A DNA stretch of 64,000 nucleotides from a virus. The translations under genes were made by a program, and so were the position numbers. Shown here one piece after another: positions 3,004 through 64,000 of the stretch (the stretch's first letter is position 1; each line of letters begins with the position of its first letter). Below the pieces are notes generated by a model that saw only the letters and a program-made list of their open reading frames with translations, made no database searches and was not told the origin of the DNA. Where the stretch lies: IMG/VR virus record IMGVR_UViG_3300035670_000091. One strand, given 5' to 3'.

Positions 3004-4383
3004 TTACCTTCTTATGTCCAGAGCCTTGCCAGGAACTGTACTCCTCCAGATGTGAGGAGTAGAGGTGATGCCTGGTTTTGCCATAGTAGTCTTGTTTTGT
3101 ATCAAGTGGTCGATGTTGGTGGAGTTCTTTAGAGTCGCTGAAGCCTCAGTCGTTCTGGCCCCTGACGGAAGCTTTACTACAGTGGTATCTGTCGTGCTGT
3201 TATTAAAGACAGCAGAAGACAAATATGACTCTAGGTCTATTTTACCCACAACCGAGCGGTCTAATGGGCGTGAAGATTTGAAGGAATTTCCTAGGTAGTC
3301 AATAGAGCTAGTTCCAAGTCCGTCTGTAGCAGCCATAATCTCCGCAGAGTACTCTCCTGCTCGATTCATCTTGTGTGACACAGTACGTACTAGCCAACCA
3401 CCGTCAGTTTGGCTGCCTGTTCCATCCACGTACACAAGGCCGTACGGATGAATTCGAGGGTCACCCTGACCAACTAGTTTGGCTGGCAGATTGAATCTAG
3501 CAAGCTGAGCTTCAGAAGAAGCGACTTGCTTTGCCCATGAGTAGCTATTCGCTACGAAAGTCGACTGCGAGGTAAACAGTACGCCGCTCTGGTCTTTCCT
3601 AAGTTGATTGCCCACGTTTATGGGGGAGTTCTTTGCCAAGAACGGTTTTCCAGAGATAGGGTTTACTCCACCTACTTGCTTGTTGGTACGCAAGTCCGTG
3701 CCCCATTCCACATACTCTCCGCTGAGCACTTGGATTGAGTCAAGCGTTCTGTCTATAGCGTGCTGAACGCTTGGCGTAGGCATGCCCCAGTACTGAAGTA
3801 GAGGGATGTTAGACACATCTTGGTAAATAGCTTTGTCAATTGGTCGGAAGATTAAGTCCACGCCATCTACGTAGCAGATGTACCCAATGAGGCGAGCATG
3901 CTCCTGAAGCCATTCCCAATAGCTCTCCGTAGTAATTGATAGCTGTGACCACCTAAACGTGGTGTTCTCACCAACAAATCTCAGTCCAACTTCTTTAGCA
4001 AGAATCGCAGCAACTTCAGGGACTGTCTTATTCTGAAAAATCCTTGGCTGGCTTTCTTTCAGCAAGAAAGAAGAACCAATGCAGTACACCTTTGTTGGCC
4101 TATCGGTTTGGGCTGCCTTAGTCTCAGTAGTTACAGTGACGTAGCCGTACCACACTTTTTTGCGGGAACCTTGGGTCCACGTAAGTTGTATAGGCACACC
4201 TGTGCGTAGTTGCCTAAAGAGCTCTCCACGGTTACTGGTATACGTCAACTGGAGGACGTCATGTTGACCAGCAGCTTGTCTGAGCTCTAGAAACTCAGGC
4301 TGAATCGCAAACGAGGGCAAAGTAGGGAACTCCACTCTGTAACGAGTAGATTTTCTAGGCTTTCCTACTAACTGCTTAGACAT
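3004..4383 (-). CDS. Baseplate hub (gp27/gpD-like)
   Basis: QLSITTESYWEWLQEHARLIGY, GQGDPRIHP...GGWLVRTVSH pattern; synteny. Confidence 0.75.
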   Translation of the reverse strand: MSKQLVGKPRKSTRYRVEFPTLPSFAIQPEFLELRQAAGQHDVLQLTYTSNRGELFRQLRTGVPIQLTWTQGSRKKVWYGYVTVTTETKAAQTDRPTKVYCIGSSFLLKESQPRIFQNKTVPEVAAILAKEVGLRFVGENTTFRWSQLSITTESYWEWLQEHARLIGYICYVDGVDLIFRPIDKAIYQDVSNIPLLQYWGMPTPSVQHAIDRTLDSIQVLSGEYVEWGTDLRTNKQVGGVNPISGKPFLAKNSPINVGNQLRKDQSGVLFTSQSTFVANSYSWAKQVASSEAQLARFNLPAKLVGQGDPRIHPYGLVYVDGTGSQTDGGWLVRTVSHKMNRAGEYSAEIMAATDGLGTSSIDYLGNSFKSSRPLDRSVVGKIDLESYLSSAVFNNSTTDTTVVKLPSGARTTEASATLKNSTNIDHLIQNKTTMAKPGITSTPHIWRSTVPGKALDIRR

Positions 4384-37657: not shown

Positions 37658-39253
37658 TTATGCAAAGAACGGACTTGAGCTTTCAGATACCTCAGGCATA
37701 ATTAGGTCCACCGTCATCGCACAGGCGATAGCTAGTGAGTCTACAAAGTCGTCGTGGGCATGGGCCTCATCTGGCGCAGCAACCGAGAAAGTGTTTCCCT
37801 TGTACTTAATCTCAGCGTCAGTCATCTGCTGGTAGAAGCGCTTCCATGTGCGCAGACGCCTTGTCTTTGCATGGCCAGGGAAGCCCAGCATGCGGCGCTG
37901 TAGCAGGGCCTGTAGGTGCTTAAACCTCTTTGACTGCTCTGAGGGAGAGGATGTGAGCGCAATTACTTCTGAGCGGGGGAGAAGAATCTTAAGACGCTGA
38001 GCAACAGCGTCACCGACACCGTTCGCATCCACTCCGACAGCCAAGACATCGTAGTTCGAAAGGAAGTTGACAATCTGGAAATACTGTTCCTCCCAGTCGT
38101 CGCCTTGAAGTTCCAGCCAGTTAAGGACACGATGGTCGAAATAGCCAAACTCATCGGGACGGTCCCAGTCAACCCAGACAACCGTAACAACAGTGGAGTC
38201 CATCTTTCGAGCGGGGTCAATTCCAACGACGACAGGAGTTTGATGCCAGACTTTGACAATTTCTTGTGACTTGTCACTGAGTTCGTCCATGAGAGATGAG
38301 GTAACAAACATGCCTCTTTCTAGTAGCCACTTACAGTTATACGACATCTGGAACTCGTCAGAGTCCTCACCAATTCGCATCATCTCTTTCTTGATGAACT
38401 TGGAGTAGTTGTCGTTTACTTTGGCGACGTCTCTCCAGTCCCACTGGAAGTGGTTCTGGCGCTTACCACGCTCAGTTTGGCGTCGCCTATTCAGTTGGAT
38501 AGACCTATAGAAGTTGTTCTTGCTGGTAGTTGGTGTGCCAGTCTTTATCATCGTTCCTGCGTAGTACGCAAGCATCGGGGAGATGGACTTGGAAACTACG
38601 AAGTCATCGGCTTCCTGGCACTCGTCGATGACGATGACGTGGAACGACTTTGACTCAATCTTGGCTCTTGGGTTGGCTGTCATCATTGTGAGGGTAGAGC
38701 CAGACTTCTTGAGCTTAATCATTCTGGTAACGCCACCTACACGCTTAGCGTCGTCGTCAATCTCAGGGTCGTTAAGAATCTCTACTGCACGCTCGGAGGT
38801 TAGGCGTGTAACGGTACGGCTGAACAGCGTCTCAGCCTGAGATTCAGTAGGGGCGAACATGCCGACCCAAAGTCCGTCTTTGAATTTGCCTAATAAGTCT
38901 GGGTAAAGCTTTGCTAGCAGAGGCAGAATAACCATCAGAGTAGACAGGGTGTCTGACACCGTTTCAGTTTTACCTGACTGACGGGATGCTAGGGCAGTGA
39001 TTTCTTCACCGTCATTGATGATGACGGACTCAATGATGCGCCTAGCTAGTGGTTTTTGGTAAGGGTGCAAGTCGTGACCTACTAGTACCACCATGAACTG
39101 CATGATTTTGTCAATGATTCTGTCCACAAATGCTTGGGACAGTTCATCTACTTCTTCGTCGTCTCCGTACTCTGGGGCAGACTCGTGCTCGTCCTGATAG
39201 TACTCAGGACTAATCTCTTCGAATTTATCGTCTAGGTATTCTTCTTCATCCAT
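37658..39253 (-). CDS. terL: Terminase large subunit
   Basis: ASRQSGKTE Walker A, VIVIDECQ Walker B, VGIDPAR and HDDFVDS nuclease motifs. Confidence 0.95.
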   Translation of the reverse strand: MDEEEYLDDKFEEISPEYYQDEHESAPEYGDDEEVDELSQAFVDRIIDKIMQFMVVLVGHDLHPYQKPLARRIIESVIINDGEEITALASRQSGKTETVSDTLSTLMVILPLLAKLYPDLLGKFKDGLWVGMFAPTESQAETLFSRTVTRLTSERAVEILNDPEIDDDAKRVGGVTRMIKLKKSGSTLTMMTANPRAKIESKSFHVIVIDECQEADDFVVSKSISPMLAYYAGTMIKTGTPTTSKNNFYRSIQLNRRRQTERGKRQNHFQWDWRDVAKVNDNYSKFIKKEMMRIGEDSDEFQMSYNCKWLLERGMFVTSSLMDELSDKSQEIVKVWHQTPVVVGIDPARKMDSTVVTVVWVDWDRPDEFGYFDHRVLNWLELQGDDWEEQYFQIVNFLSNYDVLAVGVDANGVGDAVAQRLKILLPRSEVIALTSSPSEQSKRFKHLQALLQRRMLGFPGHAKTRRLRTWKRFYQQMTDAEIKYKGNTFSVAAPDEAHAHDDFVDSLAIACAMTVDLIMPEVSESSSPFFA

Positions 39254-39482
39254 TATTTGCACGCTTTTTCAGCTCTAATGTGATGGCGTACAGTGCTTCA
39301 GCACCTAATACTGCCTCTTCATACTGTTCAGGCGATTTTGCGCCTGTGCCAGCTATGTTCTTACCAATAACAAATAGAGCGTTCTCTACCCATAGCACTA
39401 GCTCATGCGTAGGGATTTTCTCCACTCTCTGCATCAATTTCGTCGGGAGCTGGGGTCCAGCCTTTTTCTTCAACAAAGTCAT
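39246..39482 (-). CDS. Hypothetical protein
   Basis: Coupled to terL. Confidence 0.6.
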   Translation of the reverse strand: MTLLKKKAGPQLPTKLMQRVEKIPTHELVLWVENALFVIGKNIAGTGAKSPEQYEEAVLGAEALYAITLELKKRANNG

Positions 39483-43507: not shown

Positions 43508-43947
43508 TATGCGTTCTCCTTAATAGCTTTGTACAAATCTGCTTTGGATGCGGTTGGGCCAAATACGCCTTTTACCTGACGGGATAGAGTGGCATGGAGG
43601 TGAGGCCCACTTGAGGCGCTGCCAGTATTCCCGACTAGGCCAATAGTGTCTCCCACGGCAAGCTTTGCGCCTACCTCGAGAGTTGGCTCGGACTTTAGAT
43701 GGCAGTACCCGATGTACCAGATTTTGCCTTCTTTGTCCATAGCAGACTGGACTAGAACCCAGCCTAGAACTTTGCTGAACTGTACTAGCTTGACAGTTCC
43801 TTTTGCGATTGCGGGAATCTTAGTTCCCTCTGGCATTGCCCAGTCGGTACCGCTGTGGGCTTGCATTCCGTTCTTGCGGCGGAACTCCGACATTGTGCCA
43901 TAGTGCCCAGTAATCTTCTTATCTGGGAAGGGCAGCTTCCAACTCAT
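43507..43947 (-). CDS. M23 family peptidase (endolysin)
   Basis: AHSGTDW (HxxxD), GYCHL, GPHLH. Confidence 0.88.
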   Translation of the reverse strand: MSWKLPFPDKKITGHYGTMSEFRRKNGMQAHSGTDWAMPEGTKIPAIAKGTVKLVQFSKVLGWVLVQSAMDKEGKIWYIGYCHLKSEPTLEVGAKLAVGDTIGLVGNTGSASSGPHLHATLSRQVKGVFGPTASKADLYKAIKENA

Positions 43948-50214: not shown

Positions 50215-50287
50215 CCAGTAAGTTCGTAGGGCTGCGACTTTAGGTGTTATATAACCCCAAGTCCGTTACGAAGGAACTTACTGTTTG

Positions 50288-50359
50288 CTCTCCCCCCTGG
50301 GGTCGAACCAGGAACCACCCGATTAACAGTCGGACGCTCTGCCATTGAGCTAGGGGAGA
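50288..50359 (-). tRNA. trnN: tRNA-Asn (GTT), CCA not encoded
   Basis: Full cloverleaf: TCTCCCC/GGGGAGA acceptor, GCTC/GAGC D-stem, CTGTTAA anticodon loop, CCTGG-TTCGACC-CCAGG T-arm, G discriminator. Confidence 0.95.
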
Positions 50360-57340: not shown

Positions 57341-58219
57341 AACGGCAGGGGCGCTGTCAGGATAGCCGTCAGGCGTCCGACAGGGGGGGAAAAAGTGACT
57401 AAAGTGACCAAAGATAACGATTTGGTAACGATGACTGCGCTAGTTGTGGCGATTTTCGTGCTATGGCACAAAAAACTGCGGATTCCGCACTGTTTTGGGC
57501 CTTAAAACGTCATTTTTCGTGCGTTAGCACAGATTTTGCCACGATAAGCGTGGCTGGACGTCGGCTACTGCCTCAGAAAGTAGACGTGACCTGGGTGTTT
57601 CACCTGGGGGGAACTTTGTGGCAGCGTCGCCTAACCCTCCCCCCCTTGCTGACGGCTGTCTACCCCCCCTTGACGGCCGTCAGGCATCCGTCACCACCCT
57701 GCCCCCTGACTCGCAGTCAGGTGGCACACCCCTGCAACCCGCTCCACAGCTGGGCTGACGGCCTGCTCGGTGGCACACCCGATGGCGGGCCAGCCCGACC
57801 ACCCCTGCCACCCCTGCCAAGGTGGCCAGTTCGGCTACTGCTGGGCCAGCTGGTCGGCCTGTGTGGGAGCCACCAGACCACCACTACCACCCCCCTGCTG
57901 TTACCAGCTACGAGGCCAGCCAGCGACCCACTGAGACCAGCAGGCCAGCCCAGCCAGTGGGTGTGTCTCTCTCTCTCCTCTGGAGCCTCTACAGGACCTC
58001 ATGGACCCTGCTCCCGACCAAGGGGGGAGGACCCCCCTGAGACCCCCCCGAAGGCCATGTGGCAGGGGCGCTTCTAGGCCAGCCCTACGGACGGCTAACG
58101 GCCGTTGTTACCAAACTGTTACAAACGCCGACAACCCAGTGCTGGTGCGGGTTGTGGGCCATCCCGACACGCCCAACGGACAGACGTGTTGGACTTTCCA
58201 ACACAGCTGTGCTTTACTG

Positions 58220-58830
58220 GTTCCTGTCGGCGGTAGGGCAACCGAGTCGGCAGGGCCCTCAGCCCCCCGAGAGGGGGGCGGGGGCACCACCCGAAACTTC
58301 ACAACTCCACAGCAGACTTGCAAAACCCCAGCTGTATGGCTGGCACTGGCGCATCGCTTCGGTGCGTTGCTTGCGGACACCCTCGGCCATCGGCCACCGT
58401 CCGCCTCTCTCGGCAACGCCTCTACCGCACAGCGGTCACGCCCCAGTCCCAAACCGCAGTGGCAACACCGTAAACGACCCCTGTCAGGGCAACGTGATAC
58501 CCACTCTGCGGAGTGGCGGTGAGTAGCCTGTAGGGAGGATGCTCGATACCAACCATGTGAAACGTTGGCGGTGTGCACTGCGTGCCGAGTAGGGACTGGT
58601 AATCCCAACGCAGTCAGTATGAACGACCAAGTAGGGCTTCGGCCCAAGTGCCATCTGCTTCAAGGCTCAGCCAGTGTCCCGCAGGAGGGACGGTCGTGAC
58701 AGTTACCCCATCAGTCTTTGGTGCAGGGGCGCTTCGGTGTCCCTGCCCACTGATAGGCACAGGGGGGCAACCCCCCTGAGACCCCCCCTTGTCTCGCCTC
58801 CCTGTGCTTACCAGTGGCTGTGCCACTATC
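58220..58830 (+). ncRNA. Candidate large structured RNA / 5' leader, family not identified
   Basis: At least 10 stems readable by eye, including two C(UUCG)G and two GNRA loops and nested multiloops. Confidence 0.55.
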
Positions 58831-59083: not shown

Positions 59084-59141
59084 GGTCGAAACCGAGCTCC
59101 CCCCAGCTCGGTCTGCCAGTCATGCTGGCACTGACGAGACC
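59084..59141 (+). ncRNA. Type II hammerhead ribozyme 1 (predicted cleavage 59113/59114)
   Basis: GGTC-GAAA-stem III ACCGAGCT/AGCTCGGT-C-stem I TGCCAG/CTGGCA-CTGACGA-GACC. Confidence 0.93.
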
Positions 59142-59174
59142 GTATCCAATCCGACTCAACTAAGGAGAAGCACC

Positions 59175-59307: not shown

Positions 59308-59363
59308 GGTCGAAACAGTGGGCCACCCCACTGTCTGCTGGTTAGGCCAGCACTGACGAGACC
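59308..59363 (+). ncRNA. Type II hammerhead ribozyme 2 (predicted cleavage 59335/59336)
   Basis: GGTC-GAAA-stem III ACAGTGGG/CCCACTGT-C-stem I TGCTGG/CCAGCA-CTGACGA-GACC. Confidence 0.93.
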
Positions 59364-59403
59364 GTCAGCCATCACCAATCCGACACGACTAAGGAGACAA
59401 CCC

Positions 59404-60774
59404 ATGTTCGGAGTAATCATTCAGCACACTGGCGCATCGGCATCCGAGCCAGCCCAGACCCTGCTCGTCCCATTCAACGGTGCCACGCTGGTGTTCCAGC
59501 GTGACGGCGTTGGCAAGCGTGGCTCAGCAGGAGCGTGGCGCAGGGAGCCTAGCCCTAGCCTCGCCAGCACCAAGGTCATTGGAGCCCCAGTGGCCGTCCG
59601 TCTGACAGAGTCAGACATCGACACCCTCGGTATCCACGAGACCAACCCAGCCATCCTGCCGAACGTCCTGTTCCAGAAGGCTGACCGCAAGGTCCGCAAG
59701 TTCACGTCCGTCACCAGCCACGCTGTGGCCGAGGTCGTGGCCGAGATTGACAAGAGCCTGTCCGTCGACCCATCAGGCGCAGGCCTGTCCCGCTTCGACG
59801 GCCGTCGTGTGCTCATTGACACCCCGAGCATCAAGGTCGTGGCCCCTGCTCCTGTCGTAGCTCCTACGGCTCCAGCTCCTGTGGCATCGGTGCCCGCAAC
59901 AAACCATGCGCCATCCGAGGTCCAGTGGGCCAGCCTCACCGTCCCACAGCTGTCCGACGTGGCCAGCTACCGAGTCCGCACCAACCTGCTCGGTGGCACC
60001 GTCTCGGAGGTCGACGTGTTCGACAAGTGCCGAGCATCCCAGCGCACCGTCTCCATCGTCGGCCACGCTGGCACTGGCAAGACTTCGTCCGTCACCCACT
60101 ACAGCGCACTGCGTGGCCTGCCACTGGTAGTCCTCGAGTGTGACATCGCTCTGGACGAGACCCAGACCGAGGGCACCTACATCCCCACTGGCAACGGCAA
60201 CGAGCTGGTGTGGGCCTACAGCGCTCTGGCCACAGCCATCCGTCAGCCGTCCGTCATTCTGCTCAACGAGCTGTCCCGACTAGCACCCAAGAACGCCTCC
60301 CTGTTCTTGTCCCTGCTGGCCGAGCGCCGTCTGATTGTCGGTCAGCGCCAAGGCGAGGTTATCAACGTCCACCCTGAGTGCCTGATTGTGGCTGACATGA
60401 ACCCAATCGGTTACTCGGGTGTGAGCAAGCAGGACCAAGCCCTGCTCGACCGCTTCAAGTTCGCCGTCACCTACGAATACGACCTAGACATCGACCGCAT
60501 CTGGTGCAAGTCTGAGTCGTTCCTGCGTGAGGTCGTTCAGCACTGGCGCAACAACCAGCAGGCTGACCCAAGTGCCACGCCGTTCAGCCACCGCCTCACC
60601 GAGGCGTTCAGCTGGGCTGTGAGCAACTTCGGGCTCAAGCCAGCAGTGCTCCAGTTGCTGGAGCGCTTCCAGCCAACCGAGCGTGACGTTCTCAAGCTCA
60701 CCATTTCCAAGTCGGCCACCGAAATCGCCAGCGAGTTTGGCGTGGACGTGGACGGCATCGACACCCTGCTCTAA
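59404..60774 (+). CDS. MoxR-type AAA+ ATPase (CobS/CbbQ-like)
   Basis: IVGHAGTGKTS Walker A, VILLNELSR Walker B variant, ADMNP.GYSG, ALLDRF arginine finger. Confidence 0.88.
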   Translation: MFGVIIQHTGASASEPAQTLLVPFNGATLVFQRDGVGKRGSAGAWRREPSPSLASTKVIGAPVAVRLTESDIDTLGIHETNPAILPNVLFQKADRKVRKFTSVTSHAVAEVVAEIDKSLSVDPSGAGLSRFDGRRVLIDTPSIKVVAPAPVVAPTAPAPVASVPATNHAPSEVQWASLTVPQLSDVASYRVRTNLLGGTVSEVDVFDKCRASQRTVSIVGHAGTGKTSSVTHYSALRGLPLVVLECDIALDETQTEGTYIPTGNGNELVWAYSALATAIRQPSVILLNELSRLAPKNASLFLSLLAERRLIVGQRQGEVINVHPECLIVADMNPIGYSGVSKQDQALLDRFKFAVTYEYDLDIDRIWCKSESFLREVVQHWRNNQQADPSATPFSHRLTEAFSWAVSNFGLKPAVLQLLERFQPTERDVLKLTISKSATEIASEFGVDVDGIDTLL

Positions 60775-62885: not shown

Positions 62886-63527
62886 ATGCTAAGCAAGCAG
62901 ATTCTCGCACTACCCCTCGGCACCGAGCTGGTTGTATCCAGCCGTTACCTTGGTCACCGAGTTGCCCACAAGGACAACAAGACCCCTGAGCGCATCAAGG
63001 AGCACGATGCTCACGTCGGCACGCTCTACGCTTACGACAACTACGAGGAGTCCCACTACCGCTCCAACACCGACCACCACTCGGACTGGACCAAGACCAC
63101 CACTGACCGCACCAAGCGATTCCTGCTCAAGTTCAAGGACACCGCAGGCTCCGACGTGTGGGCCATCATCCCTGTGCAGGACATCATCGCCACCAAGGTT
63201 GAGGTTGAGCCACGCTGGGCACAGGAGCGCACTGAGCGGGCCATCGCTCAGGCAGAGGCTGACCGCATCGCACAAGCCCAGCAGGCCATCGAGGAGAAGC
63301 GCAAGCTGACCGAAGAGAGTGTCAAAGAGGCCGTCCACACCAGCCTGCTCGAGCTCTTCGGTGCTGACTACTCAAACAAGGGTGTCCGCATTGGCTACAT
63401 CCGCACCTACAGCAGGGTGAACGCTGGTCCTGACGGCCAGCTCACAACCAAGCTGGAGAACGGTGGAGACATCGAAATCCCTGTGGACCTATTCCTTCGC
63501 ATGGTCGAGCGCTTCGCCAGCGAGTAA
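62886..63527 (+). CDS. Hypothetical protein
   Basis: TTAGGA RBS before ATG 62886; C-ending codon bias like neighbours. Confidence 0.75.
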   Translation: MLSKQILALPLGTELVVSSRYLGHRVAHKDNKTPERIKEHDAHVGTLYAYDNYEESHYRSNTDHHSDWTKTTTDRTKRFLLKFKDTAGSDVWAIIPVQDIIATKVEVEPRWAQERTERAIAQAEADRIAQAQQAIEEKRKLTEESVKEAVHTSLLELFGADYSNKGVRIGYIRTYSRVNAGPDGQLTTKLENGGDIEIPVDLFLRMVERFASE

Positions 63528-63535
63528 CACCAACA

Positions 63536-63633
63536 GCCAGACCAGCAGACACCGAGGTGCGAGTCCTCGGCTGGCACGAGTGCCGAACCAATCAGTAGGC
63601 CCTACAGACCTGAGCACGTCGCTAAACGGCTCA
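63536..63633 (+). ncRNA. Candidate structured intergenic RNA with T-loop-like hairpin
   Basis: CCGAGG-TGCGAGT-CCTCGG plus three further stems. Confidence 0.45.
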
Positions 63634-63660
63634 CCCATCCGACAACACTAAGGAGCACCA

Positions 63661-64000
63661 ATGACCACCACGTTCAAGCCAGCTGGCGCACCAGCCAGCA
63701 ACCAATACGGCCAGTTCACTGTCCGTTACGCATCACCTGCCCAACAGCGATACATCCGTCAGCTGTTGGACGAACGCCAGCACGACTTCGGGGAGGACTT
63801 CGACCCAGCAACCGTCAACGTGCAGAACGCATCGCACGTCATCGACCAATTGCTACGGACACCTGTCAGAGCCGACAAGGTTGTTCCAGCATCCGACAAG
63901 CAGTTGGCATTCATCGAGTCGCTGAAGACCCAGCGTCAAGGTGCGGTCCAGTTCCTGACGGACTACCTTGCCCTACACAAGTCCGACAGCTTGTCAGCCC
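63661..64000 (+). CDS. Hypothetical protein, truncated by window end (not in ORF track)
   Basis: MTTTFKPAGAP...; internal repeat ASPAQQRYIRQL / ASDKQLAFIESL; TAAGGAG RBS. Confidence 0.75.
   Translation, partial: MTTTFKPAGAPASNQYGQFTVRYASPAQQRYIRQLLDERQHDFGEDFDPATVNVQNASHVIDQLLRTPVRADKVVPASDKQLAFIESLKTQRQGAVQFLTDYLALHKSDSLSA

Follow-up and report, generated by a model that had tools for sequence, protein, structure and literature searches.

A minimal tRNA-like RNA at gene boundaries of actinomycete phages and its candidate role as an RNase P cleavage signal

Near the right end of a 64,000-nt stretch of viral DNA (IMG/VR virus record IMGVR_UViG_3300035670_000091; "the window" hereafter means this whole stretch), an intergenic region at 63536-63633 (+) separates the stop codon of one gene from the ribosome-binding site of the next. 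What kind of RNA is encoded there? The region occupies the same type of slot as two hammerhead ribozymes of the same operon, 4 kb upstream, and the original prediction, made from the sequence alone, saw in it a single 98-nt unclassified self-cleaving or structural RNA with a T-loop hairpin reminiscent of twister-sister ribozymes. The strings on which that proposal was built are all present where it had placed them. Instead of one element, however, the 98 nt contain two unrelated modules (63535-63578 and 63607-63633) with non-conserved sequence between them. The first module, as its covariation shows, is a minimal mimic of the top half of a tRNA. By analogy with the t-elements of plant mitochondria, we consider it to be probably a cleavage signal for RNase P and perhaps also for RNase Z.

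Anatomy and family of the core element

On the + strand, the core element opens with an unpaired A at 63535 (position -1, 5' of the acceptor-like stem). The strand GCCAG (63536-63540) pairs with CUGGC (63571-63575) to form P1, the acceptor-stem mimic. An 11-nt linker, ACCAGCAGACA (63541-63551), marked as a minimal D-arm substitute by mutual information and pair counts, leads into the T-arm mimic (63552-63570), where a covarying 6-bp stem (CCGAGG/CCUCGG) closes the 7-nt T-loop UGCGAGU (63558-63564). The element ends with an unpaired 3' tail, A-C-G (63576-63578), i.e., a discriminator-like A, an invariant C and a G that is replaced by U in most copies. The outer stem had originally been drawn with either GCCAG or CCAG; covariation supports GCCAG/CUGGC, and the alternative CCAG at 63542-63545 falls away. 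Seen as a single sequence, the region is inconspicuous: the spacer folds with ordinary stability (z -0.47 and -0.69), and within the window the 11-mer GGTGCGAGTCC, taken by itself, stays at chance level. The reality of the element is proven only through its homologues.

These were found in several collections. A short-query blastn search against phage records gave matches over window positions 63531-63579, all of them in unannotated gaps between same-strand genes of actinophages, namely Actinomyces phage xhp1, Streptomyces phages Yosif, phiCAM and the phiScoe phages, and Mycobacterium phage Predator. A pattern combining loop and linker was present at 70 IMG/VR loci, many with two to four same-strand copies. 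From 67 seed sequences, the window copy included, we built a covariance model (R1), which recovers a single copy in the window at 63531-63583 (65.6 bits, E 4e-13, model positions 1-53). At E ≤ 0.001, R1 gave 317 matches in 711 kb of IMG/VR loci, and the 316 besides the window copy include many that lie off the seed pattern. Nine copies are found in Yosif, eight in a complete 49-kb uncultivated virus genome (UViG), six in Predator, two in the IMG/VR contig G001 and one in xhp1. A further 43 matches come from loci in actinomycete genomes, several of them in prophage-like clusters of four to five. Phage phiC31 has no R1 copy, and an exact pattern of the T-loop plus GGCACGAGTGCC had no matches. 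As far as we searched, the distribution of matches suggests a family confined to phages and prophages of Actinomycetota, together with one metagenome-assembled genome labelled Gemmatimonadota.

Rfam 15 has no model for this RNA. Searches with the whole window, and with 221 nt at E ≤ 10, gave no match to the element, so its description as a structured, conserved RNA outside Rfam 15 holds, as does the absence of the other twister-sister core elements, for which cmscan of the 221 nt was likewise negative. The only echoes were sub-threshold ones from family copies, to the tRNA-like domain of transfer-messenger RNA (tmRNA) and to mascRNA. ARAGORN called only a tRNA-Asn in the window and no tRNA at the family copies. 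We found no description of the family in Rfam 15 or the literature searched, which is not proof of absence; a survey of 10,006 csRNAs (PMC10690425) may contain it. A 23-nt exact match of 63530-63552 to a coding sequence of lambda-like coliphages (E 0.03) was treated as chance.

The homologue collection and covariation analysis proposed as a check have been carried out and support both helices. In the alignment, column 1 corresponds to window position 63531, so that P1 comprises columns 6-10/41-45, the linker columns 11-21, the T-arm stem (P2) columns 22-27/35-40 and the loop columns 28-34. Across 150 diverse copies, 99.1% of the helix cells are paired, compared with 76% in shuffles, and the covariation score is 0.579 versus 0.147 (reached by 0 of 500 shuffles); sliding the partners against each other abolishes the signal. 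P1 is 99.9% paired, with double changes in four of five pairs in the 150-copy set and in all five in the 67-copy seed set. P2 is 99.4% paired, with double changes in four pairs. About 30 G.U cells stand against 6 mismatches in our tally of the per-pair table, a ratio of roughly 5:1; this excess, together with the orientation along the gene strand, indicates that the fold is that of an RNA of this strand.

The same data bear on a DNA-level explanation, in which the repeats would be operators, promoters, recombination sites or attP-like remnants of tRNA genes. The copies are indeed repeated in early regions, and the T-arm resembles the 3' halves of tRNA genes, which serve as phage attachment sites. 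The compensatory changes, however, keep the pairing and not the sequence, G.U pairs being about five times commoner than mismatches; the cross-loop tertiary covariation described below makes sense only for a folded RNA; and the orientation follows the genes throughout, with six copies in the lytic phage Predator. We therefore regard a DNA element as scarcely credible, and its special case, an attP site or tRNA-gene remnant, was rejected on covariation and copy number.

Beyond the helices, mutual information among the nominally unpaired columns revealed contacts that could not be products of the seed pattern or of the model. The linker consensus (columns 11-21) is ACCGGCAGACA and the loop consensus (columns 28-34) is U(U/G)CGAGU. 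Within the linker, columns 12 and 18 form a Watson-Crick pair (CG 146, GC 57, AU 10, UA 2; C63542-G63548 in the window). Column 19 pairs with column 34, the last base of the T-loop (AU 166, GC 32, CG 11, UA 3, GU 2, UG 1; A63549-U63564). Columns 14 and 29 are G.U in 194 copies and A.G in 19, with 2 exceptions, i.e., they switch in concert (A63544 to G63559), and columns 15 and 30 are an invariant G-C (G63545-C63560). By position, columns 14-29 and 15-30 are equivalent to the tRNA contacts G18-Psi55 and G19-C56, and the four contacts together rebuild the elbow between D-loop and T-loop. Both isoforms of the 14-29 contact occur inside single phages (Predator and the locus L054); thus, the switch arose more than once. 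The window copy conforms to every family constraint and uses the minority A.G isoform, which is why its loop reads UGCGAGU and not UUCGAGU.

Further conserved positions add to the tRNA likeness. The U, C, G, A and G positions of the T-loop are invariant or nearly so, UUCGAGU being present in 89% of copies, and the loop-closing pairs in most family members are of the G53-C61 type. The first pair of P1 is G-C in 227 of 233 distinct copies and in all 150 of the diverse set. Among the 100 distinct top-scoring copies, column 46 is A in 93%, column 47 is C in 100%, and column 48 is U in 86% and G in 10%; that C is also found in 229 of the 233 copies of the looser set. Column 5, the base at -1, is A in 200 of 233 distinct copies, and it never forms a Watson-Crick pair with column 46 (AA 172, AG 17, CA 15, GA 9, GG 2). 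The alignment shows a tRNA top-half mimic of about 41 nt, in which a 5-bp acceptor-like stem stacks on a 6-bp T-arm, with a folded-back linker and an A-C tail.

Gene boundaries, hammerheads and the cleavage reading

The placement of the copies is strict. In 134 distinct contexts, the conserved G stands a median of 9 nt past the stop of the upstream open reading frame (ORF; interquartile range (IQR) 7-18), and the next start with a Shine-Dalgarno (SD) sequence follows a median of 41 nt past the discriminator-like A (IQR 34-49). Copies are invariably on the gene strand. In Yosif, eight of the nine copies occupy gaps between gp68 and gp78, and nearly every gap of gp67-78 has a copy; five Predator copies lie in gaps between gp42 and gp53, where many of the gaps are filled. 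The ninth Yosif copy (L124, record positions 43892-43944) overlaps the annotated 5' end of gp67, an HNH endonuclease gene, and a weak sixth Predator copy (L125, record positions 39202-39254) overlaps that of gp49; the annotated starts of both genes are probably too far upstream. The 32 nt past the tail usually form a hairpin, with a mean minimum free energy of -10.6 kcal/mol versus -6.8 kcal/mol in shuffles (186 contexts), and the window copy is weak in this respect (-4.7). In the window, 8 nt separate the TAA from the first paired G of the element.

A constant distance to the downstream SD and a hairpin behind the element are also what an uncleaved cis element might show, whether as an insulator or protein-binding site that isolates the folding of the translation-initiation region, attracts ribosomes or a phage protein, or holds off exonucleases. 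It would also suit an 11-bp stack and an A at -1, which are not ideal for RNase P. A generic insulator, however, needs neither tRNA-specific invariants nor a single-stranded A-C tail, and the interchange with a hammerhead (see below) argues for cleavage. On balance, we consider an uncleaved element unlikely.

The strict placement bears on a second alternative, too. Faithful mimicry of elbow and acceptor end could mean that a mini-tRNA of about 41 nt, perhaps CCA-added, is released and captures in trans, as a decoy or sponge, host factors with affinity for the acceptor end or the elbow; candidate targets are tRNA-targeting toxins, modification enzymes and the CCA-adding enzyme. Many copies per genome would provide a high dose, and stable accumulation has a precedent in mascRNA and t-element RNAs (PMC1920247). 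Yet one copy per gene boundary, rigidly set between stop and SD, suits a cis-acting processing signal instead, and an RNA without an anticodon arm is no decoy for anticodon nucleases. The decoy is compatible with cleavage and indeed requires the same cuts as a processing signal; it would add to that reading, not replace it, and as the explanation of the family it seems decidedly unlikely.

The two hammerheads define the slot. Both are of type II with complete cores and lie on the + strand at 59084-59151 and 59308-59374, the second (hammerhead 2) before the start at 59404. Each scores 29.3 bits, below the Rfam cut-off (gathering score) of 37 bits, and standard annotation would therefore miss both. 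Their core elements follow the order GGUC-GAAAC, stem III, GUC, stem I, CUGACGAG-ACC. Each opens about 5 nt past a stop codon and precedes the sequence ATCCGAC-N5-TAAGGAG, which is also found downstream of the element (63637-63663, +: ATCCGAC at 63637-63643, TAAGGAG at 63649-63655 and the ATG at 63661), so the shared slot recognized in the original prediction is borne out.

A distant relative provides a comparison. Contig G001 (locus L170) has a near-identical copy of the core and encodes an AAA-ATPase 38.5% identical to that of the window. On its minus strand, the element (3763-3711) lies directly before the AAA-ATPase gene (start at 3694 or 3679), i.e., at the position that hammerhead 2 holds in the window. 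Further along the same strand (490-414), a type II hammerhead with an intact core follows the stop of the next ORF immediately and extends almost to the SD behind it. On this comparison, element and hammerhead trade places at gene boundaries in two related phages, and the swap is the strongest, still indirect, argument for a shared job of transcript cutting.

The swap could also be quoted for a new class of self-cleaving ribozyme, in which the T-loop organizes an active site as in twister-sister. The element shares the hammerhead slot, has a compact and highly conserved tertiary fold of ribozyme size, and some copies carry the loop UGCAAGU, near the UGCAAGC of a solved twister-sister construct (PMC7373991). 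Against this, no Rfam ribozyme model matched even at E ≤ 10, the fold has no conserved internal loop or bulge to hold a scissile phosphate, and most copies have the plain tRNA loop UUCGAGU. Moreover, tRNA mimicry accounts for every conserved feature, from the T-loop invariants and the G18/G19-like contacts to the G-C first pair and the discriminator-like A. A ribozyme is thus very improbable, and the hairpin is no twister-sister relic but the T-arm of a tRNA top-half mimic. Several specific ribozyme and riboswitch candidates were tried and rejected: an HDV-like double pseudoknot (a partner for P2 and a GG for P1.1 are lacking), a hairpin ribozyme (helix 3 and a loop-B-like ACCAG are present, but the GUAUAUUAC strand is not), a decayed hammerhead (GACAC and CUGAGCA depart from the essential bases, and stem II is missing) and a fragment of a cobalamin riboswitch (no B12 box and no Rfam match). 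The cmscan of the 221 nt at 63480-63700 gave no hammerhead match either; the nearest strings, CUGAGCA and GACAC, break essential core positions.

The preferred reading, an RNase P signal, would work as follows. Within the early transcript, which is polycistronic, host RNase P would recognize three features (acceptor/T-arm stack, elbow and A-C tail) and cut at or next to the A|G junction at 63535/63536, the predicted candidate site, about 8 nt past the upstream stop. A further cut, by RNase Z or some other nuclease, may fall behind the discriminator-like A. The cuts would separate the cistrons, and the downstream message would keep a structured 5' end, formed by the tRNA-like fold or by the hairpins behind it, which here include the module at 63607-63633. 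In this view, the element would correspond to the two hammerheads but depend on a protein enzyme. RNase P needs an acceptor/T-arm stack, an elbow, a G-C first pair and a discriminator region. Acceptor/T-arm minihelices are established substrates of RNase P, as McClain, Guerrier-Takada and Altman reportedly showed in 1987. The phage's own tRNA-Asn(GTT) gene (50287-50359, minus strand; U at -1) has no encoded CCA, its discriminator G being followed by CAAAC; hence, the host must process CCA-less precursors, which is consistent with the processing-signal reading.

Several points weigh against RNase P cleavage. The coaxial stack has 11 bp where a tRNA has 12 bp, and the base at -1 is a conserved A, while E. 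coli RNase P prefers U at this position. The tail is A-C-U or A-C-G and not CCA, and RNase Z may, though this is uncertain, be hindered by the invariant C that follows the discriminator. A cut 8 nt past the stop leaves the 3' end of the upstream message unprotected. The window copy is followed by 84 nt before the downstream ATG, as compared with the usual 41 or so and beyond the family IQR of 34-49. For this particular slot, the evidence of position comes from the window copy.

If RNase P (and RNase Z) do cut, many actinobacteriophages, including the cultured phages Predator and Yosif, would use tRNA punctuation of the mitochondrial type, with a 41-nt substrate dividing an early transcript into messages of one gene each. 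Unannotated gaps of 100-180 nt in the genomes of hundreds of phages would have an explanation, some start-codon calls could be corrected, and structural work on RNase P would gain a natural minimal substrate made of elbow plus acceptor. The hammerhead swap would then show ribozyme-based and enzyme-based processing to be functionally interchangeable modules. In practical terms, the family is missing from Rfam 15 and our model could be added directly. Taken further, early operons might be built from interchangeable RNA "punctuation cassettes" in which the mimic swaps with hammerheads; in the boldest form of this idea, the mimic would self-cleave through its T-loop/linker core or be released in bulk as a mini-tRNA that disarms tRNA-end binders. 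We regard this as a long shot.

The downstream module and the rest of the locus

Between the two modules, the spacer (63573-63605, +, including the overlap with the 3' end of the core) is non-conserved and holds two weak hairpins, GGCA-CGAG-UGCC (63573-63584) and GUAG-GCC-CUAC (63595-63598/63602-63605). The closest relative copy (L080, in G001) has a different hairpin at the spacer position and keeps neither GGCA/UGCC nor GUAG/CUAC. The former hairpin also overlaps and competes with the outer stem GCCAG/CUGGC of P1. A search of protein collections for translations of spurious ORFs in the spacer found none.

The second module (63607-63633, +) reads GACC-UGAGC-ACGUCGCUAAACG-GCUCA, a hairpin with a sequence-conserved loop of 13 nt closed by UGAGC (63611-63615) and GCUCA (63629-63633). 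It is possibly a 27-nt H-type pseudoknot, modelled with GAC pairing to GUC and UGAGC to GCUCA. A 37-nt match of this region to N4-like Ruegeria phages supplied a search pattern. With 20 specified bases, it gave four IMG/VR matches, where about 0.02 would be expected by rough scaling from the 24 matches of a 15-base pattern. A looser pattern matched at least 120 loci; 62 of 124 matches have four or five of the five stem pairs, compared with a chance estimate of about 7%, and their many different stem sequences covary. The GAC/GUC stem, invariant in this sample, which is biased by the pattern, is a candidate stem of the pseudoknot. No copy of the module had an Rfam match. The consensus is GACC, a 5-nt stem strand, ACGUCG(Y)UAAA(M)G and the 5-nt stem partner.

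Copies of the module (L171 404-430; L172-L175; L176 4462-4488; L277 3109-3135 and 3222-3248) often stand within the tRNA arrays of phages, between two tRNA genes, or precede genes of unrelated phages; in a set of 45 distinct contexts, 8 copies are just 1-4 nt ahead of a tRNA called by ARAGORN within such arrays. The arrays also contain Rfam tRNA matches of 100-104 nt (L176 4206-4307; L277 3005-3104, 3252-3355 and 3427-3528), a length far beyond class II tRNAs that suggests insertions or introns.

The closest likeness we found for this module is the coremin xrRNA-C of plant viruses, which has the motif GUCCGAAGACGUUAAACUAC and the spacer GUUAAAC (PMC10520033). Both combine a short helix of the GAC/GUC type with a conserved G(U/C)UAAA(C/A) spacer, and both stand before RNA that is, or in the case of the module would be, protected; the module contains the spacer-like GCUAAACG, and its 8-nt third loop, G-C-U-A-A-A-C-G, resembles the coremin spacer. 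Coremin, however, is defined by a 4-bp hairpin with a YGAD (or YGNNAD) loop, a spacer of 8-10 nt and a second hairpin. The module has no YGAD tetraloop hairpin, and its first helix encloses 8 nt that pair downstream of the spacer. Its hosts are bacterial and have no Xrn1, RNase J being the analogue. The likeness is a resemblance only. We take 63607-63633 as a separate conserved module, plausibly one that protects the 5' end of the processed downstream message.

The window as a whole is phage-like, with 51% G+C. The rightward operon begins near 57463 and encodes a CobS-like AAA-ATPase and a VWA protein. The gene upstream of the element (62886-63527, +, 213 aa) ends with the TAA at 63525-63527 and has 14 homologues with 44-86% identity, the encoding contigs of which were in none of the viral, metagenome or genome contig collections searched; the proteins P0001-P0015 are 211-214 aa long. 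The downstream gene (ATG at 63661) is PHROG 636-like and is cut off by the window end. The 1-kb region and its flanking proteins had no blastn or tblastn matches in phage records.

ATCCGAC-N5-TAAGGAG occurs four times in the window (58828, 59149, 59378 and 63637, +), a number reached by 0 of 100 shuffles, and each copy lies 5-7 nt upstream of a start codon. The motif resembles an extension of the SD, conserved in association with starts. The pattern ATCCGAC-N4-CTAAGGAG gave 24 single, chance-like matches in IMG/VR contigs, none of them in relatives and never as a repeated motif. A hairpin-dense stretch of about 300 nt at ~58520-58830 (+), apparently free of ORFs, precedes the first small gene in the segment that hammerheads punctuate, and it has no Rfam match at E ≤ 10. 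The linker of the element, 63541-63551, is the exact reverse complement of 59332-59342, the region of the GUC cleavage site and stem I in hammerhead 2; with a window E of 1.5, this is probably chance.

Comparison with known systems

Canonical tRNA: a cloverleaf with D-stem and anticodon arm is absent here, the acceptor and T stems being just 11 nt apart.

Type II hammerheads: those of the operon share the slot, but 63536-63633 has neither the CUGANGA nor the GAAA core, and cleavage would need a host enzyme.

Twister-sister (RF02681): both RNAs have a T-loop hairpin, UGCAAGC in the 5T5A construct (PMC7373991) and UGCGAGU here, and both occur in hammerhead-associated neighbourhoods. Twister-sister is built on a P1-P2 internal loop with a C-A cleavage site and on a multi-way (three- or four-way) junction, both absent from the element, the T-loop of which docks on its own linker as in tRNA, unlike that of twister-sister. 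With its defining sequence features examined in each case and not found, the element is not a twister-sister, a hammerhead or a canonical tRNA.

tmRNA and YrlA: the tRNA-like domain of tmRNA and the YrlA Y RNAs (PMC4201824) are bacterial or phage RNAs that likewise keep the acceptor stem, the T-arm and a reduced D-loop contact, and one Predator copy reaches 21 bits, below threshold, with the tmRNA model. Those RNAs come from separate genes and carry sizeable additional domains (an mRNA-like region and a Ro-binding stem, respectively), whereas the family lies inside operons and has no extra domain.

mascRNA/MEN-beta (RF01684): RNase P uses this tRNA mimic to form the 3' end of the RNA that precedes it. 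With the mascRNA model, one copy of our family scores 26.2 bits, below the cut-off of 42.5. mascRNA belongs to a eukaryotic nuclear long non-coding RNA, forms a full cloverleaf and has no sequence homology to the family.

t-elements: in plant mitochondria, tRNA-like folds within mRNAs are cut by RNase P and RNase Z at the 5' and 3' termini of the mRNAs (Forner et al. 2007, PMC1920247). The T-arm is conserved there as in our family, with the t-element sequence GGTTCRANYCC (PMC1920247), and the window copy has what marks a tRNA-like processing signal, namely an acceptor-like stem stacked on a T-arm with the T-loop invariants. t-elements differ in that they are organellar, few per genome, and descend from tRNA genes as degenerate cloverleaves of about 70 nt. 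The family has a 41-nt two-helix design with a one-base-pair substitute for the D-arm and is present at up to nine gene boundaries per phage. By analogy, the element would work like a signal of the t-element or mascRNA type, yet with a distinct minimal design.

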